Shown here: one piece after another, positions 3,229 to 52,911 of the stretch
Numbering within the stretch: the first letter of the stretch is position 1
Layout: each line of letters begins with the position of its first letter
NCBI GenBank assembly: GCA_964515545.1
Contig: CAZERI010000002.1
Location: forward strand, 149,731 to 213,730
Source: an uncultured Gammaproteobacteria bacterium
GTDB lineage: Bacteria > Patescibacteriota > Microgenomatia > Levybacterales > UBA12049
Length of the DNA: 64,000 nt
Direction: 5' to 3'
The notes under the pieces: model-generated
The model's database searches: none
Seen by the model: only the letters and a program-made list of their open reading frames with translations
Told to the model about the DNA's origin: nothing
Made by a program: the position numbers and the translations under genes

Positions 3229-3252
3229 CGCTTCAGAATTGACAGACTGCTT

Positions 3253-3822: not shown

Positions 3823-3823
3823 T

Positions 3824-4954: not shown

Positions 4955-4966
4955 TTCTTAGATGAT

Positions 4967-5017
4967 AGGTCTTAGGTCTTAGGTCTTAGGTCTTAGGTCT
5001 TAGGTCTTAGGTCTTAG
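4967..5017. repeat. perfect heptanucleotide microsatellite (AGGTCTT)x7 plus a partial unit, intergenic
   Basis: Read directly: seven uninterrupted AGGTCTT copies at 4967-5015. They lie between the GT4 stop (4954) and the acetyltransferase start (5047). Confidence 0.95.
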
Positions 5018-5046
5018 TTTATATCTTAAGAAAAATACAAACACAT

Positions 5047-13251: not shown

Positions 13252-13312
13252 TCCCGTTTAAGGACAACGTGATCCGACTAACTATACACTGCTCCTAACG
13301 TCTCTTTGATCT

Positions 13313-14413: not shown

Positions 14414-14425
14414 TAAGGTGAATCT

Positions 14426-15508: not shown

Positions 15509-15510
15509 CC

Positions 15511-20304: not shown

Positions 20305-20811
20305 ATGAATATGAAAAATAAGAAGATAATGATCTCTGTTGCAGCGGTTGCTATACTGCTCCTTGGTATCGGTGGATATTTCGTGCTAGCTCAGAAAAAT
20401 ACCAAGCCTCCGGTTGAGAACCCTTATGAGTCAGAAGACGCGATTAAAATACCTGCCAGTGATATTGGTCTTACCATGGAATTAAGTGCTGATGAGAAGA
20501 AAGTTAGATTTACTGCTTCCAAGTTGGATGGAGCTACATCTCTGGAATGGACCTTTAACTATGATGCAGATATTCCACCTGATCAGAGATCTGAAGCAGA
20601 TGGAGCAGCAAAAGTCTCTCAGGCATTCGGAAGCCTTGAACCAGTAGATGTATCTGGCAAGTCTTCTTATACATCTGAATATAGAGAATTAGGAACCTGC
20701 TCAAGTGGCCATTGTCGCTATGATACAGGGGTTGAAAAAGTAAATCTTGTTCTTAAAATGACAAAGACGGACGGGAAAGTTTACCAAATAGAAGACTCAA
20801 TCAGCCTCTGA
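20305..20811 (+). CDS. hypothetical membrane-anchored extracytoplasmic protein
   Basis: N-terminal signal anchor (ISVAAVAILLLGIGGYFVLA) and no recognisable domain. TTGACA-N16-TACAAT promoter-like element at about 20270-20298. Confidence 0.4.
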   Translation: MNMKNKKIMISVAAVAILLLGIGGYFVLAQKNTKPPVENPYESEDAIKIPASDIGLTMELSADEKKVRFTASKLDGATSLEWTFNYDADIPPDQRSEADGAAKVSQAFGSLEPVDVSGKSSYTSEYRELGTCSSGHCRYDTGVEKVNLVLKMTKTDGKVYQIEDSISL

Positions 20812-24759: not shown

Positions 24760-24816
24760 GGAGTTGATGCTACTTAAGAGCAATCAATATAATAATTATT
24801 ATTAATGACTGAATGC

Positions 24817-24840
24817 AACCCGCCATGGCGGGTTTTTTTA
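24817..24840 (+). terminator. intrinsic-terminator-like hairpin in the 5' leader of the purF-purN gene (candidate attenuator)
   Basis: AACCCGC-CATG-GCGGGTT stem-loop followed by TTTTTTT, about 50 nt downstream of the predicted TSS and about 38 nt upstream of RBS GAAAGGA/ATG 24879. No upstream + strand gene for it to terminate. Confidence 0.5.
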
Positions 24841-24878
24841 TGGAAAGACTAGTAGTAGTTGGGAATGAAGATGAAAGG

Positions 24879-27014
24879 ATGCTGCAGGATAAATGCGGTA
24901 TCATAGGGCTGAGCTACCCCGACTGGATGATGGATAGCAAAGGTGAGGCTGCACCTAGCATGGTACGCAATGCTTTAGTAGCACTTCAGCATAGAGGTCA
25001 AGATAGTGCGGGTTTTACCGCTTTAAATGGAGATATGAAGACGTATCACGGGATTGGTCTTATTAACCAGGCAATTCCGGATGAAGATTTAGTAAAGGCA
25101 GGCGGAAGCAGGAGAGCTATTGGACATACACGATATAGAACTAAGGGCAGTATCTCAGGTGAGAACAGTCAGCCTATCCAGGTGCAAAATAATGATTATG
25201 TGCTTAGTCTTGCCCATAATGGCAATCTTACTAACGTTAATTGGCTGCGTGATAATACCGAACAGGTTTTTTCAGAAGATGCATCTGACACGGTTCTTCT
25301 GACTGCTTACCTTCTGCAGCAACGACACCTCTATCCCTCATGGGAGACTACTTTTCAAGAAGAAATGCCTCGTGTTAAAGGTGCATATAGCGCTGTAGCC
25401 TTAACAGAGGATGGAAATCTGCATGGTTTTAGAGACCCTTATGGAATTAGACCCTTTGTCGTCGGAGCATTTAGAGAGGGAGGAGTAATGATGGCCTCAG
25501 AATCTGTCGCTTTTGATACTGTGGGTGCTGAATATAGGAGACAGCTTGAGAGAGGTGAAATTATGACAGTAACTCCTGATGGAGACATACAATCGCTTTT
25601 CTATGGAGAGCCTAAAAGATCGAGATTCTGTACTTTTGAAAATTTTTATTTTCAACGTCCCGAAACATTTAGTAATGGTCAGAGGGTACAGTCAGGCAGG
25701 GTTGAGTCCGGTAGATTACTAGCCGAGAGGATGGAAAGTAAAAATATTAACTTTGATATCGTAGTTCCTACCCCTGCATCAGGATCACTTGCGGGGGAAG
25801 GATTAGCTGAGCGCTCAGGTAAACGGCTGGTCCATGGAGTAGGAACGAGTCATTATCTTGGGAGGACCTTTATTATGCCAGGGGAGGAAAACCGTAAAGA
25901 TGCGGTAAGCAATAAGCATATTATCATGCCGGATGAGCTGGATGATATGTCTGTAGCAGATGAAGACGACTCAACTGTACGCGGAACAACCTCAGGTAAA
26001 ATTACTGAAGAATTACGAAGAGGAGGTGCTCGTGAAGTGCATAAAGCCCTAGCTGCTCCTCCTGTTGTTAATACTTGTGATTTGGGGGTAGATATGCACG
26101 ACCGCTCAGAATTGCCTGCTGCAAAAGTAGCGGATAGATCTCATGAGGAAATAGAAAATTATATGGCACAGGTTATGCATTCGGATACTGCTACATTTCT
26201 TACTCGTGAAGAAGTATCAAGAGCGTTTAATAGGGATGAAAAAGATATGTGCACCTTCTGTCTAGGTGGTGAGCATCCAGTCCATGGCCGACAAGAGGAA
26301 TTTCCTCAACGGGAACGCCAAATGAGAGGCAGGCCAAAGCTTTCAGTTTTTATCTCAGGTAATGGGACTAATCTTCAGGAGATAATAAATGGAACTCAGT
26401 CCGGTACGCTTAAGGGGGAGATTGTCTCAGTTGTCTCGAGTAATCCTTATGCTTTTGGCCTCCGAAGAGCAATGGAGGCAGAACTGCCAATTTTTTCTAT
26501 TAGTTCCAAAGGAAAGTTGAGTAATCCTTTAAAAAGAGCAGAGTACGAAGAAAAATTACTGGATGTGCTCTATTCCAATCTCCCTGATGTTCTGGTTCTG
26601 GCTGGATTTATGAATATATTAGGAGATTCTTTTTTAGAAACTATGCAGGATTTAGAGATACCAGTTGTTAATCTCCATCCAGCTCTTTTGCCTTCTGATA
26701 AGAGGGATCAGATAGCGACTTCTCGAGGAAGAATGCCTGTTCTGAGGGGGACAGATGCGATTGATAAGGCTTTTGATCTTAATTTGCGTGCCTCAGGGGT
26801 AACGGTACATCAGGTACTGCCTGGAAATGAGTGTGATACTGGACCGGTTATTCTTAAAGAAGAAGTCCATCGTCGAGTAGACGATACACCTGAGGAGTGG
26901 GAGAAGAGAATTCATGAAGCAGAATTTAGAGTCCTTCCAACAGCTATTAAGAGAGTTCTTCATGTTATGGAACATGGAATAGATGTCAGCCGAGGTGAGT
27001 TCCCCTGGAGCTAA
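24879..27014 (+). CDS. purF: bifunctional fusion: amidophosphoribosyltransferase (PurF, Ntn glutamine amidotransferase + PRTase) fused to a PurN-like formyltransferase (GAR transformylase) domain
   Basis: N-terminal MLQDK-CGIIGL (propeptide plus catalytic Cys). RGQDSAGF, IGHTRYRTKG, HNGNLTN and the PRTase motif DEDDSTVRGTTS. C-terminal about 200 aa with LSVFISGNGTNLQEII, NLHPALLP and GVTVHQV...DTGPVIL, the Formyl_trans_N/PurN motifs. Start moved to ATG 24879, preceded by GAAAGGA. Confidence 0.8.
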   Translation: MLQDKCGIIGLSYPDWMMDSKGEAAPSMVRNALVALQHRGQDSAGFTALNGDMKTYHGIGLINQAIPDEDLVKAGGSRRAIGHTRYRTKGSISGENSQPIQVQNNDYVLSLAHNGNLTNVNWLRDNTEQVFSEDASDTVLLTAYLLQQRHLYPSWETTFQEEMPRVKGAYSAVALTEDGNLHGFRDPYGIRPFVVGAFREGGVMMASESVAFDTVGAEYRRQLERGEIMTVTPDGDIQSLFYGEPKRSRFCTFENFYFQRPETFSNGQRVQSGRVESGRLLAERMESKNINFDIVVPTPASGSLAGEGLAERSGKRLVHGVGTSHYLGRTFIMPGEENRKDAVSNKHIIMPDELDDMSVADEDDSTVRGTTSGKITEELRRGGAREVHKALAAPPVVNTCDLGVDMHDRSELPAAKVADRSHEEIENYMAQVMHSDTATFLTREEVSRAFNRDEKDMCTFCLGGEHPVHGRQEEFPQRERQMRGRPKLSVFISGNGTNLQEIINGTQSGTLKGEIVSVVSSNPYAFGLRRAMEAELPIFSISSKGKLSNPLKRAEYEEKLLDVLYSNLPDVLVLAGFMNILGDSFLETMQDLEIPVVNLHPALLPSDKRDQIATSRGRMPVLRGTDAIDKAFDLNLRASGVTVHQVLPGNECDTGPVILKEEVHRRVDDTPEEWEKRIHEAEFRVLPTAIKRVLHVMEHGIDVSRGEFPWS

Positions 27015-27650: not shown

Positions 27651-28835
27651 ATGCTTCAGTCAGCAAAAAATTATTTTCATTTATTACAGGCAATTCGGGC
27701 TGTGAGAAAGTATAAGAATCCCTCTCAGAGCTTAACGATAATAGGAGTAACTGGGACTGATGGAAAGACTACTACTGCAAGTCTTATTTACCATATTTTG
27801 AAAGAAGCAGGCTATAAAACAGCTCTCATTTCGACTGTAGCAGCATACATCGAGGATAAGAAATATGACACTGGATTTCACGTCTCGACTCCTGATAGCG
27901 CTACCCTTCAATCATATATCGCAAAAGCCAAAAAAGTCGGTGTAACCCATATTGTGTTGGAGGTAACGTCACACGCTCTTGATCAGCATAGAGTCCATGG
28001 AATTCATTTCGCAATCGGAGTCTTAACGAATATTAGCCATGAGCATTTAGATTATCATAAGACAATGCAACATTATATGCAGGCAAAAGCCAAACTTCTA
28101 GAGAGTTCGGATGTCTCTATTATTAATCGTGATGATGACTCTTATACTTTTATGCAGAATCGTCTAAAAAATAAAAAGGTAATAAGTTATGGTTTGAGCA
28201 ATTTAGCTGACAGCAACCTTTCAAACCATTCTTTTAAAACAAATCTGCCAGGTATATTTAACCAGTCCAATATCTTAGCTGCGTTAACGGTAGCAGATAT
28301 TTTAGAAGTTGATCCTCAGAAAGCTGCCCATGCCATCTCTTCTTTTCACCTTCCTGAAGGGAGAATTGATGTTGTCTACGATAAGGACTTTAAAGTCATT
28401 ATAGATTTTGCACATACGCCGAACGCTCTTAGAAACATTCTGCAGACTCTCAGGGAGACTACTCCTCAGGGAAGGATAATTCATGTCTTTGGCAGTGCAG
28501 GGAAAAGAGATGCAAGCAAGAGACCAGCTATGGGAAAGATTTCTCAAGAGCTTTCTGATATCATCGTCCTAACTTCGGAGGATCCAAGAGATGAGTCACC
28601 TGAAAAAATTGCGGAAGATATCACCTTGGGTATGACAGCCAGCCAGACTAAGCTTTCTTTTATAGCAGATAGACAGGAGGCTATAACTCAGGCGATACGT
28701 CTCGCGGAGAAAGGCGATGTGGTTATTATCACAGGGAAAGGTCATGAAAAATCGATGAATTTAGGCCAGGGAGAAAAAAAATGGAGTGATCATGATGCAG
28801 TAGAGAAAGCCTTAAAAGAATTATGGAAAAATTAA
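27651..28835 (+). CDS. murE: UDP-N-acetylmuramoyl-L-alanyl-D-glutamate--2,6-diaminopimelate (or L-Lys) ligase MurE, short N-terminus
   Basis: Mur ligase P-loop IGVTGTDGKTTT, central DFAHTP and C-terminal LTSEDPRDE (DNPR-like) motifs. Confidence 0.8.
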   Translation: MLQSAKNYFHLLQAIRAVRKYKNPSQSLTIIGVTGTDGKTTTASLIYHILKEAGYKTALISTVAAYIEDKKYDTGFHVSTPDSATLQSYIAKAKKVGVTHIVLEVTSHALDQHRVHGIHFAIGVLTNISHEHLDYHKTMQHYMQAKAKLLESSDVSIINRDDDSYTFMQNRLKNKKVISYGLSNLADSNLSNHSFKTNLPGIFNQSNILAALTVADILEVDPQKAAHAISSFHLPEGRIDVVYDKDFKVIIDFAHTPNALRNILQTLRETTPQGRIIHVFGSAGKRDASKRPAMGKISQELSDIIVLTSEDPRDESPEKIAEDITLGMTASQTKLSFIADRQEAITQAIRLAEKGDVVIITGKGHEKSMNLGQGEKKWSDHDAVEKALKELWKN

Positions 28836-30241
28836 GGAAAATTCATTTTGTAGGAATAAAGGGGGTCGGTATGACGCCTTTAGCGATTATTGCTAAAGAA
28901 GCAGGTATAGAAGTCTCAGGGAGTGATGTAGCAGAGAGATTTATTACCGATGCTGCTCTTAAGAAAGCGGGAATCTACCCTCAGGAAGGATTTATTCCGG
29001 AACATATTACATCAAATATTCAGCTAGTCATAACCACCGGAGCGCATGGTGGGTATGAGAATGTCGAAGTAATCAAAGCCCGTGAACTCTCAATTCCTGT
29101 TATAACCGCAGGAGAGGCTGTTGGGGAATTCATGCAGGGGGATATCTTAGGCAGGAAATTTCAAGGAATTTCCATCACAGGATCACATGGTAAAACTACC
29201 ACGACTGCTATGCTCACCACAATTTTTCAAGAAAATAACTTAGACCCATCATATTTGATCGGAACAGGCAGTTTTGGAGATTCCTTGCCGGGACATTTTG
29301 GTAAGGGGGATTATTTTATAGCTGAAGCAGATGAGTACGCGACTGAGCCGAAGCATAATCATAAGGCACGCTTCCTGTGGCAGCATCCCTCTATGGCTCT
29401 CTTTACTAATATTGAGCATGATCATCCCGATATCTATCCTACTATGGAAAGTATCGTTAAGGTATTTGAAGAATTTGCATTACTTATCCCTCATAATGGA
29501 GTGTTGGTAGGGAATGGAGATAATCCTTATGTCACAAAAATTTTTCAAAAAATGTCCTGCCAGACTATCACTTTTGGCCTATCTCCAAAGAATGACTACG
29601 TAATTGATCGAGTGCATATTTCAAGCAGCCAGACTTTTTTTCGTGCCCATACTAATGAAATTGATTTAGGCGAATTTAGGTTGTCAGTGACAGGGGAACA
29701 TAACGCGCTTAATGCACTTGGAGCTGCAGTTCTTGCGTTAGAGGCTGGCCTTCCCCTTGAGAAAATTAAATCTTCACTTGCGGTATATACCGGATCAAAA
29801 AGGAGACTTGAGTATAGAGGACAACTAACAACAGGAGCGTATGTATTTGATGATTATGCCCATCATCCGACCGAGATTAAAGCTACTCTTAAGTCACTTC
29901 GCCAGCGCTTCCCTCAGTCAACTCTGATTGCTGTCTTTCAGCCACATACCTATACTCGTACCAAGACGCTCCTTGAGGAATTCGTAAAGTCATTTGATGA
30001 TGCTCATAATGTTATTATTACTGATATTTTTGCATCAGCTAGAGAAGTTAAAGATGAGACAGTCTCTTCAAAGCTTCTTCTGCAGAAGCTTGCTACCCGT
30101 CATCCTGCAGCTTTATATATTCCTTCTCCTGAAATGGCAGTGGAGCTTCTTTTAAAAGAGAGACTTAAAGATAATGTGGTAGTTGTTTTTATGGGAGCGG
30201 GAGATATCTATCAGGCTATTGATTTATTGTCTTTTAAATAG
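28823..30241 (+). CDS. murC: UDP-N-acetylmuramate--L-alanine ligase MurC
   Basis: IHFVGIKGVGMTPLA N-terminal MurC signature. P-loop ITGSHGKTTTT. C-terminal Mur ligase domain. Confidence 0.85.
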   Translation: MEKLRKIHFVGIKGVGMTPLAIIAKEAGIEVSGSDVAERFITDAALKKAGIYPQEGFIPEHITSNIQLVITTGAHGGYENVEVIKARELSIPVITAGEAVGEFMQGDILGRKFQGISITGSHGKTTTTAMLTTIFQENNLDPSYLIGTGSFGDSLPGHFGKGDYFIAEADEYATEPKHNHKARFLWQHPSMALFTNIEHDHPDIYPTMESIVKVFEEFALLIPHNGVLVGNGDNPYVTKIFQKMSCQTITFGLSPKNDYVIDRVHISSSQTFFRAHTNEIDLGEFRLSVTGEHNALNALGAAVLALEAGLPLEKIKSSLAVYTGSKRRLEYRGQLTTGAYVFDDYAHHPTEIKATLKSLRQRFPQSTLIAVFQPHTYTRTKTLLEEFVKSFDDAHNVIITDIFASAREVKDETVSSKLLLQKLATRHPAALYIPSPEMAVELLLKERLKDNVVVVFMGAGDIYQAIDLLSFK

Positions 30242-30255
30242 GGCAAAATGGTATA

Positions 30256-31602
30256 ATGCAGACGATGGACAAGTACATAATCACAGGCGGAAATGTCTTA
30301 AAGGGAGAAGTAAGAGCCAGCGGTGCTAAGAATGCAGCCCTTAAAGCATTAGTAGCAGCCTGTCTTACTGATGAAGAAGTAATAATTAAAAATGTTCCCG
30401 AGATTGCTGATGTCTATGTAATGCTTGAGATCATGAAAGAACTCGGAGCAAAGGTGAGTTTTACTGATCACACAGTCCGCGTCCAGATGCAGGATTTTGT
30501 CACCCATAAGCTTTCACTGGAAAAAGCAGCACAAGCAAGAACTTCTTCTATGTTCATCGCTCCTCTTTTAGCACGATATAAAGAAGCTATTGTCCCTAAT
30601 CCTGGTGGTTGCAGATTAGGCGCTCGGCCTATTGATCGGACAATCGAGGGAATTGTTCATATGAATGCTCATATCCATTACGACAGTGATGATGGCTATT
30701 TCCATGCGAAGACCGTAGGGCTGCAGGGGATTGATTACACCTTTACCAAGAATACTCATACCGGTACTGAGACGCTCATCTTAGCTGCAGCTTTAGCAGA
30801 AGGGACAACTGTCCTGCATAATGCAGCAGAGGAACCTGAGATTGATGACTTGATAGGGTTGATTAATGCCATGGGTGGGAACGTAGAGCGGACCAATGCG
30901 AGAGAAATTACTATCGTGGGAGCAAAAAAACTCCATGGTGCATCATATACCATTAGCCCTGATCGGAATGAAGTAGTTACATTTGCTATTATGGCCTATG
31001 TTACTAAAGGTGATGTTTTTGTGAGAGATGCCCAAAAGGTAGACTTACAGGCATTCTACGAAAAATTAGATCAAGCAGGAGCATCCTATGAAAAAAAAGA
31101 AGATGGAGTAAGATTCTATTACGAAAAACCGCTGCAGGCAGTGAGTGTAGAAACCGCGATTTATCCGGGATTTATGACTGATTGGCAGGCACCATGGGCA
31201 GTCTTAATGACGCAAGCGATTGGAGAATCTATTGTCCATGAGACAGTATTTGAAAATAAATTATCATATATCAATGATTTAAAGAAGATGGGAGCAGCGG
31301 TGACGCTTTTTAATCCTGAAGTTGCCGATCCTGAGAAAGTGTATAACTTTAATCTAGAAGATAATGATCCGTCTTTTTTTCATGCAGTTAAGATTGTCGG
31401 CCCTAAACCACTTCATAATGCTGTGGTCATGATGGCAGATATCAGAGCGGGGGCTGCTGTAGTTCTGGCAGCGTTGTGCGCAAGCGGTGAAAGTTATATC
31501 TTAGATGTTCAGAAGCTGGACCGTGGGTATGAGCATTTTGAAGAAAGAATCCAAGCTCTTGGAGCGAGTATTAAGCGTGTTCGGGGTGAAGAAGTATTAT
31601 GA
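30256..31602 (+). CDS. murA: UDP-N-acetylglucosamine 1-carboxyvinyltransferase MurA
   Basis: YIITGGNVLKGEVRASGAKNAALK. EPSP-synthase fold, about 448 aa. Confidence 0.9.
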   Translation: MQTMDKYIITGGNVLKGEVRASGAKNAALKALVAACLTDEEVIIKNVPEIADVYVMLEIMKELGAKVSFTDHTVRVQMQDFVTHKLSLEKAAQARTSSMFIAPLLARYKEAIVPNPGGCRLGARPIDRTIEGIVHMNAHIHYDSDDGYFHAKTVGLQGIDYTFTKNTHTGTETLILAAALAEGTTVLHNAAEEPEIDDLIGLINAMGGNVERTNAREITIVGAKKLHGASYTISPDRNEVVTFAIMAYVTKGDVFVRDAQKVDLQAFYEKLDQAGASYEKKEDGVRFYYEKPLQAVSVETAIYPGFMTDWQAPWAVLMTQAIGESIVHETVFENKLSYINDLKKMGAAVTLFNPEVADPEKVYNFNLEDNDPSFFHAVKIVGPKPLHNAVVMMADIRAGAAVVLAALCASGESYILDVQKLDRGYEHFEERIQALGASIKRVRGEEVL

Positions 31603-32360
31603 CATCGTCTCAAGTCGGAGCAATTATTCTAGCAGCAGGGAAGGGGAAGCGAATGCAGAGTATCTCCATGAACAAAACTGCCTCTCTTCTTGGCAACAAA
31701 CCTATGATTCAGCATATTGTTGAATTTATGCAGAAAATATCTATTGGGCAAATAATTATAGTAGTAGGTTTTGCGAAGGAATCAGTAGAGAAAGCTTTAG
31801 AGGGATTTAATGTGACATATGCAGAGCAGACAGAACAATTAGGAACTGGTCACGCTGTTAAGGAAGCAATGAGAGAACTGCATCCTCAGATAAAAGATGT
31901 CTTAGTTGTCTATGGTGATGATGCAGTACTTTATAATAGTAACAACTCTCAAGTTGTTGCTGACTTGATTAGAAAACATCAGTCAGAAGGTAATTCAGTA
32001 ACGTTCCTTACTATTGAGCAGGATGATCCTACTGGCCTGGGAAGAATTATCCGCGATGAGAAGGGGGAGGCACTAGGAATTGTTGAGGAGAAAAATGCCA
32101 GCGATGAACAAAGAAAAATCACTGAAATAAATCCTGGCTGTTTTGTCTTTAGTGTGGAGTTCTTGAAAAAGTATATAAAGAGTATTGAAAAAAATGAGGT
32201 ATCAGGAGAGTATTACTTAACTGATCTGGTAGATATTGCTCGGACTAACCAGCTAAAGATGAATACAGTAAAAGGCGGTAAGCTGCTATGGCGAGGAGTT
32301 AATACTCCTGAAGAGTTACAGACTGCTCAAAAAATGATGGGAGAAATACTGCATGGATAA
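31599..32360 (+). CDS. stand-alone GlmU-N-like sugar-1-phosphate uridylyltransferase domain (UDP-GlcNAc pyrophosphorylase) lacking the LbetaH acetyltransferase domain
   Basis: AIILAAGKGKRM and EQTEQLGTGHAV motifs of the GlmU N-terminal domain. Only 253 aa, with no hexapeptide repeats. Confidence 0.7.
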   Translation: MTSSQVGAIILAAGKGKRMQSISMNKTASLLGNKPMIQHIVEFMQKISIGQIIIVVGFAKESVEKALEGFNVTYAEQTEQLGTGHAVKEAMRELHPQIKDVLVVYGDDAVLYNSNNSQVVADLIRKHQSEGNSVTFLTIEQDDPTGLGRIIRDEKGEALGIVEEKNASDEQRKITEINPGCFVFSVEFLKKYIKSIEKNEVSGEYYLTDLVDIARTNQLKMNTVKGGKLLWRGVNTPEELQTAQKMMGEILHG

Positions 32361-32787
32361 TATCGAATTTAAAAAAGTTCTGGAATTTACTCCTGAAATT
32401 GGGAAAGCTATACGGGATCTTACTGATCAGCTGGATAAAAACCACCAAGAGCTTTCGGATACTGATATAAGAGACATGATAGAGAATCCAGGGACTCATC
32501 TTCTAATCGCAAAAGATGCAGAACATATCGTTGGGATGATAACACTCATCGTGTATAGAATTCCTTTTAAGATGAAAGCTCAGCTGGAAGATTTTATTAT
32601 TGATGAAAGTATGCGGGGTAAAGGACTGGGAACTAAATTACTCCAATTTTCTATAGATGAGGCCAAAAAAGCCGGAGTGAAGTCCCTTAACCTGACATCC
32701 CGTCCCATCCGTGAGTCAGCAAATCTCCTCTATCAAAAAATGGGATTTCAAAAACGTGATACCAATGTGTATAGGATGGAACTATGA
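32353..32787 (+). CDS. GNAT family N-acetyltransferase
   Basis: Acetyl-CoA binding motif RGKGLGTKLLQFSIDEAKKAGV (Q/RxxGxG/A). 144 aa. Confidence 0.8.
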   Translation: MDNIEFKKVLEFTPEIGKAIRDLTDQLDKNHQELSDTDIRDMIENPGTHLLIAKDAEHIVGMITLIVYRIPFKMKAQLEDFIIDESMRGKGLGTKLLQFSIDEAKKAGVKSLNLTSRPIRESANLLYQKMGFQKRDTNVYRMEL

Positions 32788-33474: not shown

Positions 33475-35235
33475 ATGTGTGGAATATTTGGATATATCGG
33501 TACTAGAACAGACGCTCCAGAGATAGTCTTGGATGGATTAAAACTCTTGGAATATCGTGGATATGATTCCTGGGGTATCGCTGCTAAGGTCGATAAGACT
33601 ATCGAGGTTGATAAGCATGTGGGTAAGATTGGTAATGCTACTATTAACTTCCCTCCTAGCAGTCTGAGTATTGGGCATACCCGTTGGGCAACCCATGGTG
33701 GTGTTACTGATATCAATGCTCACCCTCACCTCGACTGCACCAGACAGATTGCAGTAATACATAATGGAATTATAGAAAATTTTGAAGAGATAAAAGAAGA
33801 ATTACTACAGAAAGGACATACCTTTATTTCCGAAACTGACACTGAAGTAGTTCCTCACCTTATTGAGGAGCATCTTAAAACACAGGGGTTTGCACATGCA
33901 TTTAGGAATGCTTTTAATCGACTTCATGGGCTGAATGCGATAGTGGTCGCCTATGCACCCTCTAAAGAAATCATGGCAGCCAAGACTGGTTCACCGCTTG
34001 TTTTAGGTATTGGCGATGAAGAACTTTTCCTCGCGTCTGATTCTGCAGGAATTATTCCTCATACCAGAAAGCTAATCTTTATGAAAGACGGAGAGATGGC
34101 AATCTTAGGGAAGAAGCTGCAGCTTATTGCATTGAAAACCGGGGATCAGATTGAACCAGTAATAGAGGAAGTAAATTGGAAAGTAGAAGATGTGCAAAAA
34201 GGCGAGTACGACCATTTCATGCTCAAAGAAATGCATGAGCAGTCACAAATTGTCCGCAATATTGCAAGTACATATGACGATCAAGTGAGAGATATGGCTG
34301 CATTGATAAAAAATGCGTATGGTACTTATTTTATTGGCGCTGGCACTGCCTATCATGCAACTTTAGCAGGAACCTATCTTTTCTCAAAAATTGCTAAGAA
34401 GCATGTTAATACGTCACTTGCCTCAGAATTTAATTATCTTGAGGACTTTTTAACAGATAGGAGTTTAGTTATCCCTTTATCTCAGTCGGGGGAGACAATT
34501 GACGTTATTGAGCCTCTTACTCGGGCTAAAGAAAAAGGGAGTAAGATTGCAGCTCTTGTTAATGTCCTCGGCTCAACAATTTATCGCATGGCTGATAAAA
34601 AAATTCTTATTGGTGCTGGTCCAGAAAAAGCAGTCGCATCTACGAAAGCCTATATTGCTAAGTTAAGTGTGCTTATCCAGCTTGCTTATGCTCTTAGTGG
34701 CGAGTTAGAAGAGGGAAAGAAAGTTTTGGAAAAGGCTGCAGGCGAAATAGATAAAATACTTGGTGAAGACATGAAACAAACTATTGATACGATAGCTGAT
34801 GTCCTTTTAGATGCTGAGCATATCTATACTGTTGGGCGCGGATTATCATTTGCTACTTCTTTGGAGGCAGCATTAAAAATAAAAGAAATTAGCTACATTC
34901 ATACTGAAGGACTTGCAGGAGGAGAACTTAAGCATGGCCCGATAGCTCTTATTTCTCAGGGCACACCATGTATTGTATTCGCTCCAAGTGATGAAACGTA
35001 TTCTGCAATGATCTCCAATGCACGCGAAATTAAAGCTAGGGGAGGAGTAATCATAGGCGTTGGATCGAAAAAAGAGGAAGTATATGATCACTTCATCAAA
35101 GTAGGAGACTGCGGTGCAGCATCATTAATTGCACAAATTGTCCCTATGCAGTATCTTGCTTATAAATTGGCAGTAAAGAAAAATTTGGATCCTGACAAAC
35201 CCCGTAATCTAGCAAAAAGCGTTACGGTAAAGTGA
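33475..35235 (+). CDS. glmS: glutamine--fructose-6-phosphate aminotransferase GlmS
   Basis: MCGIFGYIG Ntn start, two SIS domains and C-terminal KSVTVK. 586 aa. Confidence 0.95.
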   Translation: MCGIFGYIGTRTDAPEIVLDGLKLLEYRGYDSWGIAAKVDKTIEVDKHVGKIGNATINFPPSSLSIGHTRWATHGGVTDINAHPHLDCTRQIAVIHNGIIENFEEIKEELLQKGHTFISETDTEVVPHLIEEHLKTQGFAHAFRNAFNRLHGLNAIVVAYAPSKEIMAAKTGSPLVLGIGDEELFLASDSAGIIPHTRKLIFMKDGEMAILGKKLQLIALKTGDQIEPVIEEVNWKVEDVQKGEYDHFMLKEMHEQSQIVRNIASTYDDQVRDMAALIKNAYGTYFIGAGTAYHATLAGTYLFSKIAKKHVNTSLASEFNYLEDFLTDRSLVIPLSQSGETIDVIEPLTRAKEKGSKIAALVNVLGSTIYRMADKKILIGAGPEKAVASTKAYIAKLSVLIQLAYALSGELEEGKKVLEKAAGEIDKILGEDMKQTIDTIADVLLDAEHIYTVGRGLSFATSLEAALKIKEISYIHTEGLAGGELKHGPIALISQGTPCIVFAPSDETYSAMISNAREIKARGGVIIGVGSKKEEVYDHFIKVGDCGAASLIAQIVPMQYLAYKLAVKKNLDPDKPRNLAKSVTVK

Positions 35236-35264: not shown

Positions 35265-36824
35265 ATGCGAATGGATGGAATGTATATTTTTACATCGGTG
35301 GCTTTTTTTATCTGGGCACTGCGCTCGATTTCCTATTGGATTAATCAGTGGCAGAGGTTATCTAGTGGAACACTTCAAGTAAGGTCTCCATTCAAATATG
35401 TAGTAAAAACATTTTTTTCGCCCTTTTCAGTTATTAGCTGGACGGGAGTTATTTTTGCTTTTTATATAACTATCGTAGATCTACCCCTCATTTACTACGA
35501 ATCTTTTATATTCTTTATATTTATTTTCAAAGCGGTATTTACTCTTATTGATCTTGGAGGAGGTAGGGTAACTCTTCCCCGATTTACCTGGCAGAACAGT
35601 ATTATTAGCTGTCTGGCAGTTATTTTAACAGCTGTTGTAATTGCCCTTCCTCTAACTGAAAGGTATTTGTGGCTTTTGTTAGTCGATAGAATGCTTTTTC
35701 TTTTTGTTGCATTACCTGTCTTTCTTATTTTATTTCCTAGTGAAATTTTGGATGATATTCAGTTAAGAAGAGCAGAACAGCTAATCAGAAAATTAAGAAG
35801 AATTAAGCCTGTTTTTATTCTTGGAGAGAATGCTACAGAGACAGCTTATTTTATGCAGCAGACTATCAGAAAGAAAAGGACTGTAATTGTAATAGAAGGT
35901 CCATTTATGAGGCCCGGATTTATAGCTAAGTCTATTATAAAAAATACTACCCCCAAAACAGATTTTATTTTCATTGTTATTCCGAAAATACACCTATCAT
36001 TACTTAATACTATAGCGAGAATAGTTCCGCCGGCTTTTGTTATTTTTTTGGATAAAGATCCAAAAGTATTTCAGAAAACAATAAAAGTACTTGATCCTTC
36101 TATTTCTAAAAATACCTCTCTTATTATGGATCAGGCAGTAAAAAATACAGCTGCTAGTAAGAGAAGAAACGTCTTCTCATTTGATGCACAAATTGGAGGA
36201 TCTCAGAAAAGTGATATTGCTCTGCTTTCATTCATGCAGAAAAAAGATGAACTGCAGATTTCCCTACGTCTTGATAGAGAAATGCAGATAAAAATTCCTG
36301 TTATTGGCAGCCATCATCTGCTTTACCTTCTTCCAGGGTTTCTTTTCGCTCATTTAATTGGATTTACGGAAGAAGAGCTGATAGCAGTTCAGAATTATAA
36401 CAGCCCAATGCCTGGAAGATTGGTAGGGCATATACTTCATTCAGGAATTGTCATTATTGATGCTACCCGTATCAAACAAAAAACTGAGGTAAGTGGCTCT
36501 CTTGAATACTTAAAAATTTATCATAAGAAAAAAATTGTGGTCTTTGGTATAGATGATGAGTTGAGTGCAGATGAGATAAAATCTCTTAAGACAGAATTCT
36601 CCCAGCCTACTTTGGTAATAGTCTTGAGACAGAAATACCAGCAGCTTATCAGAAGGCTTGTTCGTGTCGGTACAGGGAAATCAGAGGTAAAATTCAGTAA
36701 CGAGGAAGGAGTCCTTCAGCTCGTTTTAGATGAGTTAGGAAAAGGAGATGTAGTTCTTCTTATCGGTAAAGATGCAGAAGCGTTAGTCGAATCAATTTTG
36801 CTGTCCTCGCGAACACTTAGGTAA
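35265..36824 (+). CDS. MurF-like Mur-ligase homologue with degenerate ATP-binding loop and an N-terminal polytopic membrane domain (putative pseudoenzyme)
   Basis: About 170-aa hydrophobic N-terminus (4-5 TM). Then VFILGENATET where MurF has ITGSNGKTT (no Lys/Thr of Walker A), a retained VIVIEG (catalytic Glu region), IGSHHLLYLLPGFLFAHLIG...PMPGRL (MurF middle/C-domain-like) and VVFGIDDEL. Sits exactly where murF normally precedes mraY. Confidence 0.45.
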   Translation: MRMDGMYIFTSVAFFIWALRSISYWINQWQRLSSGTLQVRSPFKYVVKTFFSPFSVISWTGVIFAFYITIVDLPLIYYESFIFFIFIFKAVFTLIDLGGGRVTLPRFTWQNSIISCLAVILTAVVIALPLTERYLWLLLVDRMLFLFVALPVFLILFPSEILDDIQLRRAEQLIRKLRRIKPVFILGENATETAYFMQQTIRKKRTVIVIEGPFMRPGFIAKSIIKNTTPKTDFIFIVIPKIHLSLLNTIARIVPPAFVIFLDKDPKVFQKTIKVLDPSISKNTSLIMDQAVKNTAASKRRNVFSFDAQIGGSQKSDIALLSFMQKKDELQISLRLDREMQIKIPVIGSHHLLYLLPGFLFAHLIGFTEEELIAVQNYNSPMPGRLVGHILHSGIVIIDATRIKQKTEVSGSLEYLKIYHKKKIVVFGIDDELSADEIKSLKTEFSQPTLVIVLRQKYQQLIRRLVRVGTGKSEVKFSNEEGVLQLVLDELGKGDVVLLIGKDAEALVESILLSSRTLR

Positions 36825-36829
36825 TTTGA

Positions 36830-37879
36830 TTGAACTCACACTGTATCAGGAGTATAATACTGAATATGGCTGCACTTTTGGGGCTTACTATTCTTTCATT
36901 TTTTGTTAATATTATCCTCTTTGTTCCTTTCATAGATTTTTTGTACAGAGCTAAATTAAGGCGACAGCACCAGGAGACTCGTGATCTTTTTAATAACAGG
37001 ACGCCAATTTTTGATAAATTTCATAAGCTCAAGGCAGGGACTCCGGTAGGCGGTGGAATACTAATTATTGTTCTTACCTGCGTACTCACCATTTGGTCGT
37101 ATGGAATTTTAAATGTTCCCACTAAGGCGTGGGAGATGTTCGTTATTTTCTTCTCAATTATTACGTTTGGTGCATTAGGAATGCTTGATGACTGGAAGAA
37201 AATAGCTGATCCGACCCAAAAAAACGTTTTTTTCGGACTGCGTTTTAGGCATAAATTTATTATCCAGTGGATACTTGCATTAATTATTGCGACTGTTTTT
37301 TACTTTCAGTTAGGCTACTCATTTATTTACCTTCATGGGATAGGACTGATTAGTATTGGAGTCCTTTTTATTCCTTTTGCTGCATTTGTAATTGTATCTT
37401 TTGTTAATGCGGTGAATATCACAGATGGGCTTGATGGACTTGCTTCAGGGCTTTTAGTCATCTGTCTAGTGGGATTTTTGGCAATTAACTCTCAGCAGAT
37501 AGATAAGTCTCTTGGAGTATTTATCTCCATCCTTCTTGGATCAGTGATGGCATTTCTTTACTTTAATATTTATAAAGCAAGGATATGGCTTGGAGATGTC
37601 GGATCCCTTGCCTTAGGTGCTTCTCTAGCAGTTATTGGACTTTTAACAGGAAAGACAATCACCATTGGAGTTATTGGGGGAGTTTTTATCATAGAGATAG
37701 CTTCATCTCTTCTCCAAATCCTTAGCAAGAAGTACTTAAAAAGGAAGCTCTTTCCGGCTGCCCCTTTCCATTTGAATCTTCAGCAGCGCGGGTGGGAAGA
37801 GCCAAAGATTGTAATGCGTGCATGGCTAGTGGGTATCCTCTTTGCAGTATTGGGTGTTTACTTGGCATTCCTCTCTTAA
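36830..37879 (+). CDS. mraY: phospho-N-acetylmuramoyl-pentapeptide transferase MraY
   Basis: NAVNITDGLDGLASG and other MraY/WecA family motifs. 10 TM. True start may be the internal Met at 36866. Confidence 0.9.
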   Translation: MNSHCIRSIILNMAALLGLTILSFFVNIILFVPFIDFLYRAKLRRQHQETRDLFNNRTPIFDKFHKLKAGTPVGGGILIIVLTCVLTIWSYGILNVPTKAWEMFVIFFSIITFGALGMLDDWKKIADPTQKNVFFGLRFRHKFIIQWILALIIATVFYFQLGYSFIYLHGIGLISIGVLFIPFAAFVIVSFVNAVNITDGLDGLASGLLVICLVGFLAINSQQIDKSLGVFISILLGSVMAFLYFNIYKARIWLGDVGSLALGASLAVIGLLTGKTITIGVIGGVFIIEIASSLLQILSKKYLKRKLFPAAPFHLNLQQRGWEEPKIVMRAWLVGILFAVLGVYLAFLS

Positions 37880-48541: not shown

Positions 48542-48681
48542 ATTTCTACTCTTTCAGGGTCGGGTGACTCGCAGTGGCGAGAATTCCCAATCGGTAGTTA
48601 CACTCTACGAGTTTTCCTAATTAGGAGACAGGAGTCTGTTAGACACAGACAGCGACGGTATAGTCCGGATAGAAGAAAGAT

Positions 48682-49602
48682 ATGAAAAAACTCCTCGGCT
48701 TCGGGCCGTTATTTGTCGTTATTGCTGCGCTCCTTTGGAGCTTTGATGGACTGTTAAGGATCAGTCTCTACTCTCTTCCTCCTGCTGTTATTGTTTTTTA
48801 CGAACATCTCTTAGGATTTATTGTTTTACTTTTCCTGAGCTTTAAGTGGGTGAAAGATCTTAAAGAGATGACGCGAAAGGAGTGGATTGCGATAGGAATA
48901 GTGGCACTCTTCTCCGGTGCGTTGGGGACCATCTTATATACCACAGCACTGAACTTTATTCACTATACTCAGTATTCAGTGGTTGTCCTTCTTCAGCAGC
49001 AGCTTCAGCCAGTTTGGGCTATTGGAGCAGCGGGTCTTCTCTTAAAAGAAAGGATTACAAAACGATTTGTCCTCTATGCGATTCTCGCATTAGTTTCTGC
49101 TTATTTCATCACGTTTAAAGATCTTCAGGTAAATTTCGCTACAGGAGGCGGGACTATCCTGGCTGCATTATTAGCAATAGGAGCTGGATTTATGTGGGGT
49201 ACCTCCACTGCTATTAGTAAAGTTGTACTCAACCGTGTCTCTTTTATTGCAGGGACTGCATTAAGATTTATGTTAGCTCCTATTTTTGCATTAGGCTTTG
49301 TTATTATGGGAGGGCAGACAGCTTCACTTACCCAGTTAAGTCTGCCGCAGCTTCAGACATTACTTCTTATTACCTTCTCAACCGGTATGGTAGCGCTGCT
49401 TTTTTATTACTATGGCTTAAAAAGAACTCCTGCACGGATTACCACTCTTTGTGAATTAGTCTGGCCAGCATCTGCTATTCTTATCGATTACTTTCTTTTT
49501 CATAAAAGCCTTACCTTTACGCAGATATTTGGAGTAATTGTCCTTCTGGTCGCAATTTATAAAATTACCATGCCTCTTTCTAAAAAAACTCCATCTATCT
49601 AA
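48682..49602 (+). CDS. EamA/DMT-superfamily transporter (10 TM)
   Basis: Two tandem EamA-like halves, hydrophobic throughout, 306 aa. Confidence 0.75.
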   Translation: MKKLLGFGPLFVVIAALLWSFDGLLRISLYSLPPAVIVFYEHLLGFIVLLFLSFKWVKDLKEMTRKEWIAIGIVALFSGALGTILYTTALNFIHYTQYSVVVLLQQQLQPVWAIGAAGLLLKERITKRFVLYAILALVSAYFITFKDLQVNFATGGGTILAALLAIGAGFMWGTSTAISKVVLNRVSFIAGTALRFMLAPIFALGFVIMGGQTASLTQLSLPQLQTLLLITFSTGMVALLFYYYGLKRTPARITTLCELVWPASAILIDYFLFHKSLTFTQIFGVIVLLVAIYKITMPLSKKTPSI

Positions 49603-50091: not shown

Positions 50092-52911
50092 ATGTTCAAG
50101 CCGGTTTCACCTAAGATAAGTTTCCCTGATCTAGAGGAAGAGATAGGTAAATTTTGGAAAGAAAATAATACCTTTGAAAAATCAGTCACTTCACGCCCTG
50201 AAAATAAGAAATGGACATTTTTGGATGGTCCGCCTTTTGTAACAGGAATGCCTCATTATGGCCATCTTTTAGGAAGTATTCATAAAGATTTATTTGGACG
50301 TTACTGGACAATGAAAGGATATCGAGTCCGTCGAGTCTGGGGGTGGGATGGACATGGACTCCCAATTGAGAATAAAGTCGAAGGAAAACTAGATATAAAG
50401 CATAAAAAAGATATTGAGAATGTAATCGGCGTTAAAAAATTTATTGATGAATGTAAAAAATATGTTGAAGAGATCTCAGGAGAGTGGGAGTGGTATGTAG
50501 ATCATATTGGACGCTGGGTCGACTTCAAACATGCATACAAGACGTGGGATACACCTTATATGGAATCGGTGATGTGGGTCTTTAAACAGCTTTTTGAGAA
50601 GGGGCATATCTATAAAGGCTTAAAAGTTACTCTCTACTGCCCTCACTGTGCAACTCCTATTTCTAATTTTGAAGTCGCTATGGATGCTGATAATTACAAA
50701 GAAGTTCCTGATAGCGCCACTACTTATAAATATGAATTACCATCTGAAGAGCCAGGACCCAAAACCTTTATTCTTGCATGGTCGACTACTCCGTGGAATA
50801 AGATCGTTACTCCTGCACTAGCAGTTAATCCTGAGTTGGAGTACGTTAAAGTTAAGCAGAGTGATGACTATTATATCCTTGCCAAGTCAACACTCAAAAC
50901 GCTTGTGGGGAAGTATGAAATAGTAGAGGAGATGAAGGGTAAGGATCTCGTCGGAATGAAATTCGTACCTCACTATGACTACTATAAAATAAAACCAGGG
51001 GAAAAGGCATTTGAGATCATCGCGGGTGACTTTGTCACAGCAGATGAAGGTACTGGCGTCGTTACAATCGCTGCTTATGGAGAAGAGGATTTAGTCGTCA
51101 TGCTACGAGACAATGTGCATATTGAGATGCATGTAGATGAAGACGGCATGATAAAAGAAGATGTGCCAAAATTCGGCGGGATGTATTACCTCAAAGCTAA
51201 TAAAGCAGTTAATGAGGATCTGGCTTCACGAGGGCTTATTTATAAAGACGAAGAACTGCCACACAATGTTCCTCTGTGCTGGAGGTGTCATACAAGACTT
51301 TATTATGCACCAATTGATGCGTGGTATGTTAATGTCCAGAATATGAAGGAGCTCCTTAAAAAAACAAATGAAAAAGTAAATTGGTTTCCTAAGCATTTTA
51401 AGTATGGAAGATTTCTTAAGAGTCTTGAGAATGCACCAGACTGGAATATCTCACGTAATAGATACTGGGGAAGCCCTGTCCCTGTATGGGAGTGCAAATG
51501 CGGGGAGCGATTTGTCCCGGGATCTATTAAGGAATTAGAAGAGAGAGCAGGAAGAAAGGTTACTGATCTTCATAAGCCCGAGATTGACGAGGTAACGATC
51601 AAGTGTGAAAAATGTGGTGAGGATGTAAAGCGTGTTCCTGAAGTCCTCGATAGCTGGATCGAAGCAGGAAGTGCATCTTTTGCAGAGCGTCATTATCCTT
51701 TTAACACATCAGAAAAGCTGGAAGATTTTTTTCCTCCTGACTTTATTGCTGAGTACACAGGTCAAATAAGAGCATGGTTTTATGTCCTTCATGTTATTGG
51801 TGGGGCACTCTATGGTACTGAGGCATTTAAAAATGTCGGAGTTGAGGGAGTCATCTTAGGTACAGATGGAAGAAAAATGAGTAAAAATTTAGGTAACTAT
51901 CCTGATCCTAAAGAGCTTTTGGCTAAGTATGGAGGAGATGCTTTACGTCTCTATCTGATGACAAGTCCCATTATGCATGGAGAGGATATTATCATCTCTG
52001 AAGAACAGTATCGCAATCAAGTCCGCGGTATGATGCTTATTCTCTGGAATGTCTATAATTTCTTTATTCAGAATGCACTTATCGATAGCTGGATACCTCA
52101 CAATCACGAGCAGAAACCATCAAGTAATGTCCTTGACCTTTGGATTACTTCACAGCGTAATGGTCTTCTCGAGAAGGTAACCACAGCTCTTGATAATTAC
52201 GATACCGTCGTTGCGATTGATGCTATAAAAGTCTTTATCGATAATTTCTCTACATGGTATCTCCGCCGAAGTAGGGATAGAGTTGGCCCTATGGCAGCGG
52301 ATACTGAAGATAGAAATGCTTTTTATGAGACTACGTATACTACACTTATAACACTTACTAAGCTTTTGGCACCCATTGCTCCTTTTATCGCAGAGGCGAT
52401 GTATAAAAATCTTACTGATAAAGAATCTGTCCATTTAGCAGATTGGCCGGCATTTGATACATCACTAATCAATCAAGACCTTGAGCATCAGATGAGCTTT
52501 ATCCGTAAAATCGTTGAGGTTGGACATTCGGAGCGAAAGGAAAAAAGCTTAAAAGTACGCCAACCGCTTGCCAAGGCGATAATTTCACTAGGGAAAGATG
52601 CAGTGAAGCCTACTGATGCATTGGAATATCTTATAAGAGATGAACTCAATGTCAAAACACTTGATTTTAAAGAGAGTGAGGAGCTAGGAGTAGTATTTGA
52701 TACGGCACTTACTCCTGAGCTGGAGGCTGAAGGGAAAGCACGTGATATTATCCGTATGATCCAGGATGAGCGTAAAAGGCTAGAAACCAAGCCAACAGAA
52801 CTTATAGATGTTACTCTTGAGGAATGGCCTGAGGTTTTTGCTGAGGAAATAAAGAGAAAGACTCTCACGGCTACTCTCTCACAAGGACCATTTGCTATTA
52901 GACGTCAATAA
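50092..52911 (+). CDS. ileS: isoleucine--tRNA ligase
   Basis: HIGH-type motif PHYGH, GWDGHGLPIE (IleRS-specific GWDCHGLPIE-like), KMSKNLGN, ISRNRYWGSPVPVW, Zn-finger cysteines. 939 aa. Confidence 0.85.
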   Translation: MFKPVSPKISFPDLEEEIGKFWKENNTFEKSVTSRPENKKWTFLDGPPFVTGMPHYGHLLGSIHKDLFGRYWTMKGYRVRRVWGWDGHGLPIENKVEGKLDIKHKKDIENVIGVKKFIDECKKYVEEISGEWEWYVDHIGRWVDFKHAYKTWDTPYMESVMWVFKQLFEKGHIYKGLKVTLYCPHCATPISNFEVAMDADNYKEVPDSATTYKYELPSEEPGPKTFILAWSTTPWNKIVTPALAVNPELEYVKVKQSDDYYILAKSTLKTLVGKYEIVEEMKGKDLVGMKFVPHYDYYKIKPGEKAFEIIAGDFVTADEGTGVVTIAAYGEEDLVVMLRDNVHIEMHVDEDGMIKEDVPKFGGMYYLKANKAVNEDLASRGLIYKDEELPHNVPLCWRCHTRLYYAPIDAWYVNVQNMKELLKKTNEKVNWFPKHFKYGRFLKSLENAPDWNISRNRYWGSPVPVWECKCGERFVPGSIKELEERAGRKVTDLHKPEIDEVTIKCEKCGEDVKRVPEVLDSWIEAGSASFAERHYPFNTSEKLEDFFPPDFIAEYTGQIRAWFYVLHVIGGALYGTEAFKNVGVEGVILGTDGRKMSKNLGNYPDPKELLAKYGGDALRLYLMTSPIMHGEDIIISEEQYRNQVRGMMLILWNVYNFFIQNALIDSWIPHNHEQKPSSNVLDLWITSQRNGLLEKVTTALDNYDTVVAIDAIKVFIDNFSTWYLRRSRDRVGPMAADTEDRNAFYETTYTTLITLTKLLAPIAPFIAEAMYKNLTDKESVHLADWPAFDTSLINQDLEHQMSFIRKIVEVGHSERKEKSLKVRQPLAKAIISLGKDAVKPTDALEYLIRDELNVKTLDFKESEELGVVFDTALTPELEAEGKARDIIRMIQDERKRLETKPTELIDVTLEEWPEVFAEEIKRKTLTATLSQGPFAIRRQ

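Follow-up and report, generated by a model that had tools for sequence, protein, structure and literature searches.

A degenerate, membrane-anchored MurF ortholog in the murF slot before mraY of a Microgenomates bacterium

We examined an open reading frame (ORF), termed ORF X, that lies directly upstream of mraY in a 64-kb stretch of contig CAZERI010000002.1 (assembly GCA_964515545.1); "the window" denotes this full stretch. X encodes a degenerate ortholog of the ligase MurF ("pseudo-MurF") in which five transmembrane (TM) helices replace the N-terminal UDP-MurNAc-binding domain (PF01225-like). The original prediction, made from the DNA letters, had described a MurF-like, membrane-anchored, and catalytically dead protein at positions 35265 to 36824, in the murF slot before mraY. 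We confirmed the exact coordinates, and the claim can be extended: all of the ATP, Mg2+, and carbamyl-lysine residues are gone, and the gene is the positional ortholog of membrane-anchored MurF proteins with intact motifs. We believe that X serves as a noncatalytic, neofunctionalized membrane partner in the lipid I step, to which we assign a probability of roughly 0.6.

A family of membrane-anchored MurF proteins

On sequence comparison, the MurF signal of X was weak and confined to the C-terminal part. The murF model TIGR01143 matched residues 285 to 501 with an E value of 5.4e-9 at 35.5 bits and did not reach its curated cutoff of 288.6 bits. The Pfam model Mur_ligase_C (PF02875) gave an E value of 1.7e-4 at 22.9 bits, below its gathering threshold of 28.4 bits, and the Pfam profile search returned no match of Mur_ligase_M (PF08245) in X. 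Of the Mur ligase hidden Markov models that had been proposed as a check, TIGR01143 was significant, but neither it nor PF02875 passed the curated cutoff. Among PDB sequences, the best match was the MurF of Pseudomonas aeruginosa (E = 0.02). Structure prediction settles this weak signal. The AlphaFold2 (AF2) model of X, built from a 69-sequence alignment, was confident over the whole chain, with a mean predicted local distance difference test score (pLDDT) of 94.6 and a predicted template modeling score of 0.89. A Foldseek search of the PDB with an earlier AF2 model placed the MurF structures 4qf5, 3zl8, 4cvm, and 1gg4 on top (E = 2e-20 to 1e-16 over about 370 columns), ahead of MurC, MurE, and MurT. 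The MurF likeness of X is well beyond chance.

The hydropathy profile and the AF2 model gave five long helices within residues 2 to 160, followed by a stalk helix that reaches residue 176 and carries the clade-specific D164 and the family-wide A170. The lysine and arginine counts of the successive loops (1, 4, 0, 2, 1, and 7) are consistent with the positive-inside rule and fit an N-out, C-in topology, which would place the ligase-like body of X in the cytoplasm. The hydrophobic N terminus, initially read as four to five TM segments, is thus predicted to be a five-helix domain. When the membrane domain was scanned alone against Pfam, no family was common to more than 3 of the 28 members scanned, and no relative of it was found among PDB sequences.

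A word-indexed homolog search with X recovered nine close relatives only. An exhaustive HMMER search with an alignment of these relatives returned 1308 representatives with an E value of 1e-3 or below, 361 of which reached 1e-10 or below. Among the top 150 matches, most were 510 to 560 amino acids (aa) long and aligned from about residue 3 to about residue 513, membrane domain included. At about residue 188, where X reads G-E-N-A-T-E, 65 of the 116 full-length representatives carry an intact Walker A motif, G-S-[YFV]-G-K-[TS]. These 65 intact members also hold VEMGA, QH, K-x-E, FNGDN, GKHNxEN, DDTFNANP, and MIELG, and the family profile matched E. coli MurF (1gg4) with an E value of 1.2e-59, with profile positions 182 to 468 falling on MurF residues 99 to 380. 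On TIGR01143, the intact members scored 207 to 263 bits, much higher than on the models for MurC, MurD, and MurE; they stay below the TIGR01143 cutoff because the N-terminal domain is absent. Their 5-TM domain has a conserved cytoplasmic loop motif, LWQxKEYRxDR, and Q30, P105, A170, G187, P256, and G501 are shared by X and the intact members throughout the family. A second query with the 69-sequence family alignment returned zero membrane-anchored relatives, as the word prefilter was saturated by canonical MurFs. In the species-representative collection, the closest genome was a Candidatus Levyibacteriota metagenome-assembled genome, in which X is 73% identical.

Gene neighborhoods were compared for degenerate or intermediate loci (the window, L001, L002, L003, L005, L007, L008, L009, L013, L014, and the P0027 contig) and for intact-form loci (L006, L011, L012, and the P0100 contig). 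In tblastn searches, intact members matched the X locus with E values of 2.4e-38 (the L012 member) and 3e-22 over about 535 to 576 aa. Both forms occupy the same slot downstream of glmS, from which a single small gene separates them in some loci, within an ftsI...murE-murC-murA...ftsZ cluster. The gene stands directly upstream of mraY in all retrieved loci except two intact ones, where degT is inserted (plus femAB in L011). Thus, X is the positional ortholog of the intact membrane-anchored MurFs, and full-length homology together with synteny identifies it as a member of the degenerate subfamily of this family.

Taken together, a large MurF family with a 5-TM domain in place of the UDP-binding N-terminal domain is common in Microgenomates-type bacteria of the candidate phyla radiation (CPR). 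The membrane anchor is the family's ancestral state, and the intact members are presumably working MurFs. The original prediction was made unaware that the anchor is not unique to X. Comparison across the CPR recovered the same architecture, with the ORF present in the same slot of relatives; since the anchor is ancestral to a large family, only the dead branch is the oddity. Scored by the fraction kept of the 46 alignment columns with at least 85% conservation in intact members, the family is bimodal, with intact sequences at about 0.9 to 1.0, degenerate ones at 0.22 to 0.46, and few intermediates. In a rough neighbor-joining tree, the degenerate sequences formed one deep, very diverse clade, and a second small group was partly degraded.

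The family also includes about 20 representatives of 367 to 408 aa, all of which stop at the boundary between the central and C-terminal domains (P0040, P0057, P0059, P0062, P0066, P0071-73, P0076, P0077, P0090, P0096, and P0098 among them). Separate matches to the C-terminal domain only, of 224 to 300 aa, were P0102, P0129, and P0145. This suggests split versions of the membrane-anchored MurF or versions lacking the C-terminal domain.

Loss of catalytic residues and shifted constraint

We mapped the catalytic residues by adding the E. coli MurF segment to an alignment of X with 65 intact relatives (Table 1; E. coli numbering). The roles listed for the E. coli residues are those we take to be established for Mur ligases. 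The absence of the P-loop lysine, noted at the outset, was borne out, and the Walker A lysine column is alanine in 12/12 close relatives of X. Conserved acidic residues occupy the lost positions of the former P-loop in this branch. X keeps 12 of the 46 conserved columns (score 0.26), and the loop 1 motif WQxKEYRxDR is gone, the sequence being WQRLSSGTLQ (K32L, E33S, Y34S, R35G, D37L, and R38Q). One assignment of the original prediction had to be corrected. VIVIEG had been taken for the catalytic glutamate region, but that stretch aligns with E. coli LYTAGN; the Mg-binding glutamate column corresponds to V238. A MurF-like fold is kept in the AF2 model, while the alignment to E. coli MurF has the catalytic columns replaced or deleted.

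TABLE 1 Residues of E. coli MurF and the aligned positions of X
E. coli MurF	Role or motif	X
G107	Walker A	G187 (kept)
S108	Walker A	deleted
G110	Walker A	N189
K111	Walker A	A190
K115	TKE motif immediately following Walker A	A194
T131	conserved in intact members	I210
N136	conserved in intact members	M215
E158	Mg2+ ligand (family motif VEMGA)	V238, within FIVIPK
H188	Mg2+ ligand	deleted
K202	carbamylated Lys	I273
E204	invariant among intact members	V275
N218	middle-domain Asn	D289
N285	HN..N motif	Y354
D330 / N333 / N335	DDxxNxN motif	A400 / I403 / Q405
L363-G364	ELG motif	deleted

Since the nucleotide, metal, and acyl-phosphate chemistry would all be removed by these changes, we exclude with high confidence, on the aligned residues, that X adds D-Ala-D-Ala by ATP-dependent Mur-ligase chemistry. 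It had been suggested that X might be a highly divergent D-Ala-D-Ala-adding enzyme, which would now call for a noncanonical active site or mechanism. No other MurF-like gene was seen in the murF position, the fold of X is fully preserved, and pentapeptide is apparently needed, as FtsI is intact. However, the three sets of residues are lost together, the central domain is the least conserved in the clade, acidic residues fill the P-loop position, and no compensating constellation of conserved Lys, His, or Glu was seen in the central domain. We therefore consider residual ligase activity very unlikely.

We then considered whether X is under selection. The ratio of nonsynonymous to synonymous substitution (dN/dS) between X and its closest available ortholog (L005, 73% identical) was 0.13 overall, with 0.12 for the membrane domain, 0.16 for the central domain, and 0.06 for the C-terminal domain; these values are approximate because dS, at about 1.4, is near saturation. 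All loci, and about 38 degenerate representatives at 50% identity, carry the ORF at full length. With a dN/dS of 0.13 and intact ORFs, a pseudogene was rejected. A functionless relic heading for loss would agree with X being the fastest-evolving conserved gene of its cluster and with the loss of all catalytic motifs. Yet dN/dS is 0.06 to 0.16 in all three regions, the ORF persists at full length, near-invariant residues have been gained in the clade, and the AF2 model is confident, so that a relic is largely refuted and keeps hardly any weight.

The distribution of conserved columns differs between the two groups. Mean column conservation in the degenerate group was highest in the TM domain (0.44), followed by the C-terminal (0.38) and central (0.33) domains, compared to 0.56 in the central, 0.47 in the C-terminal, and 0.39 in the TM domain of the intact group. 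Near-invariant residues specific to the degenerate group were P129 (0.97), W136 (0.97), E160 (0.95), D164 (0.92), D495 (0.87), and R142 (0.82); P158 is near-invariant there (0.97) and conserved in intact members too (0.77). In the dead branch, it is thus the membrane and C-terminal domains, and no longer the ATPase domain, that are most constrained. The gained positions indicate a new or retained noncatalytic function centered on the membrane and juxtamembrane region.

Gene neighborhood and proposed role in the lipid I step

X lies inside a long codirectional cell wall and division cluster (Table 2). The gene order is mraW, ftsI, a purF-purN fusion, ydjM, murE, murC, murA, a glmU that encodes only the uridylyltransferase, a small GNAT-like ORF, a HAD hydrolase gene, glmS, X, mraY, ftsW, murG, a small membrane protein gene, ftsA, and ftsZ. 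The adjacency to mraY recurred in every degenerate-clade locus with a recovered downstream flank. The listed mraY ORF starts with TTG and encodes 349 aa, compared to 322 to 339 aa for its orthologs; the true start is probably Met13 at position 36866, which would leave about 40 nucleotides between X and mraY. No second MurF-like gene was present in any neighborhood examined, and the intact-member tblastn queries matched only the X locus in the window. We therefore rejected the idea that X is an extra paralog beside a normal murF of the cluster. That the cluster lacks a canonical murF and murD, as originally noted, holds for the whole window. Upstream of the window, the same contig has only polysaccharide synthesis genes.

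TABLE 2 Coordinates of ORF X, its parts, and other features of the window
Feature	Positions	Strand	Remarks
ORF X, degenerate membrane-anchored MurF ortholog	35265..36824	+	519 aa, ATG start; assigned by family, fold, and purifying selection
N-terminal membrane domain of X	35265..35744	+	residues 1-160; five TM helices, N-out/C-in
Cytoplasmic stalk helix of X	35745..35792	+	residues 161-176; TM5 to ligase-like body
Degenerate Mur-ligase central (ex-ATP-binding) domain of X	35793..36299	+	residues 177-345; least constrained region
Ex-Walker A loop of X	35823..35846	+	residues 187-194, G-E-N-A-T-E-T-A; aligned to E. coli MurF G107-K115 (GSSGKTSVK)
Mur-ligase C-terminal domain of X	36300..36821	+	residues 346-519; fold kept, dN/dS 0.06, DDxxNANP and ELG lost
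mraY	36830..37879	+	directly downstream of X
glmS	33475..35235	+	directly upstream of X, conserved left neighbor
murE, murC, and murA	27651..31602	+	murE short, no N-terminal domain
murE	27651..28835		394 aa
murC	28823..30241
murA	from 30256
glmU	31599..32360		uridylyltransferase only, 253 aa
Small GNAT-like ORF	32362..32784
mraW	from 21469
ftsI	from 22649
purF-purN fusion	24813..27014		733 aa; between ftsI and ydjM
Surface polysaccharide island	2296..16176
168-aa ORF	20305..20811		no Pfam match
FMN riboswitch	48546..48684		69.1 bits
EamA-family transporter gene	48682..49602
Isoleucyl-tRNA synthetase gene	50092..52911
Second FtsW/RodA-family gene	52911..53993
509-aa ORF	58779..60308		no Pfam match

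We propose that, besides catalysis, the ancestral enzyme performed a structural task at the membrane. It was presumably embedded in the membrane, and its gene lay directly upstream of that for the lipid I synthase, so it probably also brought the final cytoplasmic reaction to MraY or the divisome, most plausibly by docking that reaction onto MraY or onto the division-site wall synthesis machinery. The dead form would keep the structural role only and act in lipid I synthesis as a noncatalytic partner or adaptor. Its C-terminal domain, the best-conserved soluble part, may still bind a precursor peptide or a nucleotide-sugar ligand, and pentapeptide formation would be carried out by a gene elsewhere in the genome or be bypassed. 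A scaffold or regulator of lipid I synthesis, the role originally suggested, would agree with the position next to mraY, with purifying selection, and with the membrane residues that have become conserved.

Several points weigh against this proposal. The link between X and MraY is circumstantial, being drawn from adjacency and operon membership. Among the conserved genes of the cluster, X evolves fastest, with only the small HAD gene comparable; its identity to the L001 ortholog is 33%, compared to 55 to 91% for the neighbors, and to the L009 ortholog it is 22%, compared to 45 to 76%. Such a rate implies weak constraint for a component of core machinery. The pathway logic is also incomplete, as no replacement murF, murB, murD, or ddl was found within the 64-kb window, and long-branch attraction in the rough neighbor-joining tree may exaggerate the picture of a single dead clade.

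X could also have been neofunctionalized without docking to MraY, as a membrane sensor or regulator of precursor supply or with a 5-TM transport or lipid-handling role. A sensor might still bind UDP-MurNAc-peptide or D-Ala-D-Ala via the C-terminal domain, whose dN/dS of 0.06 is the lowest of the three regions. Constraint is strongest in or next to the membrane domain, which is also where the newly conserved polar residues R142, E160, and D164 are located, and X sits among precursor supply genes (glmS, glmU, and murA) as much as beside mraY. On the other side, the five helices match no recognizable transporter or enzyme family, the ligand-binding motifs DDxxNANP and ELG of the C-terminal domain are gone, and X has no regulatory domain. 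We regard such a role as possible, though unlikely.

Pathway completeness and related systems

The wall pathway around X differs between the two forms. murB lies between murC and murA in 3/3 intact-form neighborhoods with enough flank (the P0100 contig, L011 at 3518-4495, and L012 at 3943-4920) and is absent from the cluster in 6/6 degenerate or intermediate neighborhoods, a correlation drawn from a small and phylogenetically nonindependent sample. In the window, murA (from 30256) follows murC (to 30241) with no murB between them, and tblastn with two MurB sequences gave no match in the window, L001, L002, L008, or L009. GlmU is full-length in two of three intact contexts (the P0100 contig and L012) and split in degenerate-clade contexts; in the window, the split leaves a uridylyltransferase-only protein and a small GNAT-like ORF. 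Together, the murB and glmU patterns suggest a wider reorganization, of which the loss of catalysis in MurF was one part. murD and ddl were absent from all neighborhoods examined, intact or dead. A composite query of MurB and intact MurF was swamped by MurC-MurB fusions, and no match lay on the contigs of 348751, 166355, 96559, and 74184 bp. These fusions of about 770 aa (P0210-P0329) are widespread in Roizmanbacteria, Patescibacteria, Chloroflexota, and Verrucomicrobia, and a few carry Ddl or MurG domains.

The rest of the pathway is in place. murA, murC, murE, mraY, murG, ftsW, and ftsI are intact and score above curated cutoffs, FtsI keeps STFK/SDN/KTG (SxxK/SxN/KTG), and MurE and MurC keep their P-loops. 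With FtsI motifs kept and MurA, MurC, MurE, and MraY intact, the cell should still need D-Ala-D-Ala-terminated precursors. Hence either another part of the genome encodes a replacement MurF (and MurB, MurD, and Ddl) or the pathway is bypassed; we prefer the former.

The missing genes could instead mean that the clade remodeled or abandoned the cytoplasmic pathway, has no MurF or MurB activity, and scavenges muropeptides or precursors from a host or the environment, with X as a remnant turned into a membrane receptor or hand-over module for them. CPR bacteria are typically host dependent with reduced biosynthesis, and the murB pattern, the split GlmU, and the lack of murD, ddl, or a second murF in any neighborhood examined would all fit. 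However, intact murA, murC, murE, mraY, murG, ftsW, and ftsI would be hard to explain in a cell lacking the activities of MurB, MurD, and MurF. The genes in question could simply be located elsewhere, and the murB correlation may be one phylogenetic event. Scavenging of this kind seems quite improbable to us. It is also conceivable, if rather unlikely, that a whole deep Microgenomates branch has no working MurF, dropped murB from the cluster, and makes no UDP-MurNAc-pentapeptide by the textbook route, with X as a membrane-tethered, noncatalytic receptor or escort through which MraY would receive an alternative or scavenged precursor.

The MurE of these loci deserves separate mention. It has no N-terminal UDP-binding domain and is 392 to 419 aa long in the window, L001, L002, L008, L009, L011, and L012, and it still passes the MurE equivalog cutoff (400 > 373 bits). 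We considered whether this short murE could be the real murF and rejected this, as it scores 400 bits on the MurE equivalog compared to 86 on MurF. Going by these domain assignments, both MurE and MurF of the lineage have dispensed with the UDP-binding N-terminal domain. The intact membrane-anchored MurF may therefore act on lipid-linked rather than UDP-linked tripeptide. If so, the order of peptidoglycan synthesis steps would be changed in these bacteria.

Compared to canonical MurF (TIGR01143; 1gg4, 4cvm, 3zl8, and 4qf5), X shares the central and C-terminal fold, the best-matching model family, and the slot upstream of mraY but differs in having five TM helices for the N-terminal domain and in having lost Walker A, the Mg ligands, the carbamylated lysine, HN..N, DDxYNANP, and ELG. 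With the intact membrane-anchored MurFs, it shares end-to-end homology, including the 5-TM domain, and the same dcw/mur cluster slot; it differs in the loss of their motifs, in the gain of its own membrane-domain residues, and in a context without murB. Fold, catalytic loss, and selection place X among noncatalytic Mur-ligase derivatives, a functional class and not a homologous family. To our knowledge, the plant PAP11/MurE-like protein (8r6s_Q, 9epc_Q, and 8r5o_Q) is the only well-known precedent of a Mur-ligase pseudoenzyme derivative. It is among the fold and profile matches of X and likewise has a Mur-ligase fold in a nonligase structural role, but it is derived from MurE and is a soluble subunit of the plastid-encoded RNA polymerase, lacking both a membrane domain and a link to MraY. 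MurT, of the MurT/GatD lipid II isoglutaminyl synthase (6gs2 and 6h5e), was also among the fold matches. Lacking the UDP-binding N-terminal domain, this Mur-ligase homolog acts at the membrane and has a lipid-linked precursor as its substrate. In contrast to X, it is catalytically active and soluble, with an intact P-loop and a DUF1727 C-terminal domain, and needs GatD; the MurT model NF045635 gave no match to X at E ≤ 10. The action of MurT on lipid II may nonetheless serve as a useful analogy for the parent family of X.

In wall-bearing bacteria, MurF is regarded as both universal and essential, and it is an antibiotic target. What is new here is a large and apparently undescribed MurF family whose members are integrated into the membrane through a 5-TM domain that stands in for the UDP-binding domain, a deep branch of it that has turned into a pseudoenzyme and yet is faithfully kept beside mraY, and the correlated loss of murB from the same cluster. 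This branch offers a natural experiment in which the catalytic and structural roles of a Mur ligase would be separable, and it raises the testable question of how ultrasmall, host-dependent bacteria complete and deliver their peptidoglycan precursor. In the literature, we found no description of a membrane-anchored or inactive MurF in the CPR. A paper on the Lipocone superfamily (10.1101/2025.01.14.632903) leaves Mur ligases and MraY unmentioned, and another (PMC7143001) says on this point only that Microgenomates peptidoglycan pathways are "essentially complete."

Annotation pipelines call both forms "hypothetical protein." Intact members bear the name "hypothetical protein [Candidatus Levybacteria bacterium]" (OGH23936.1 and others; P0204, P0024, and P0100 are further intact members), and a degenerate one is listed as "hypothetical protein [Patescibacteria group bacterium]" (HVZ58863.1). 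JGI names in use for the family are "MurF" and "pentapeptide synthase," the latter of which is wrong for the dead form. Since X fails the defining catalytic features of MurF, it should not carry the MurF annotation. The names now in use will distort estimates of pathway completeness for CPR genomes.

Other genes in and near the cluster were recorded in passing. The purF-purN fusion (amidophosphoribosyltransferase plus GAR formyltransferase) takes the place at which relatives have a small tRNA_bind gene. In L009, the locus of an intermediate TM-MurF (GGVGKT kept, otherwise degraded), a 486-aa gene without a Pfam or NCBIfam match lies between ftsW and murG (13936..15396). Two window ORFs were likewise without a Pfam match (Table 2). 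The surface polysaccharide island holds GT2 and GT4 glycosyltransferases, a hexapeptide acetyltransferase, PMT_2, a sugar nucleotidyltransferase, Bac_transf, and a 1032-aa membrane protein containing Wzy_C. The second FtsW/RodA-family gene directly follows that for isoleucyl-tRNA synthetase. A flavin mononucleotide (FMN) riboswitch scoring above its gathering threshold runs into the EamA-family transporter gene, which probably encodes a riboflavin importer under riboswitch control.

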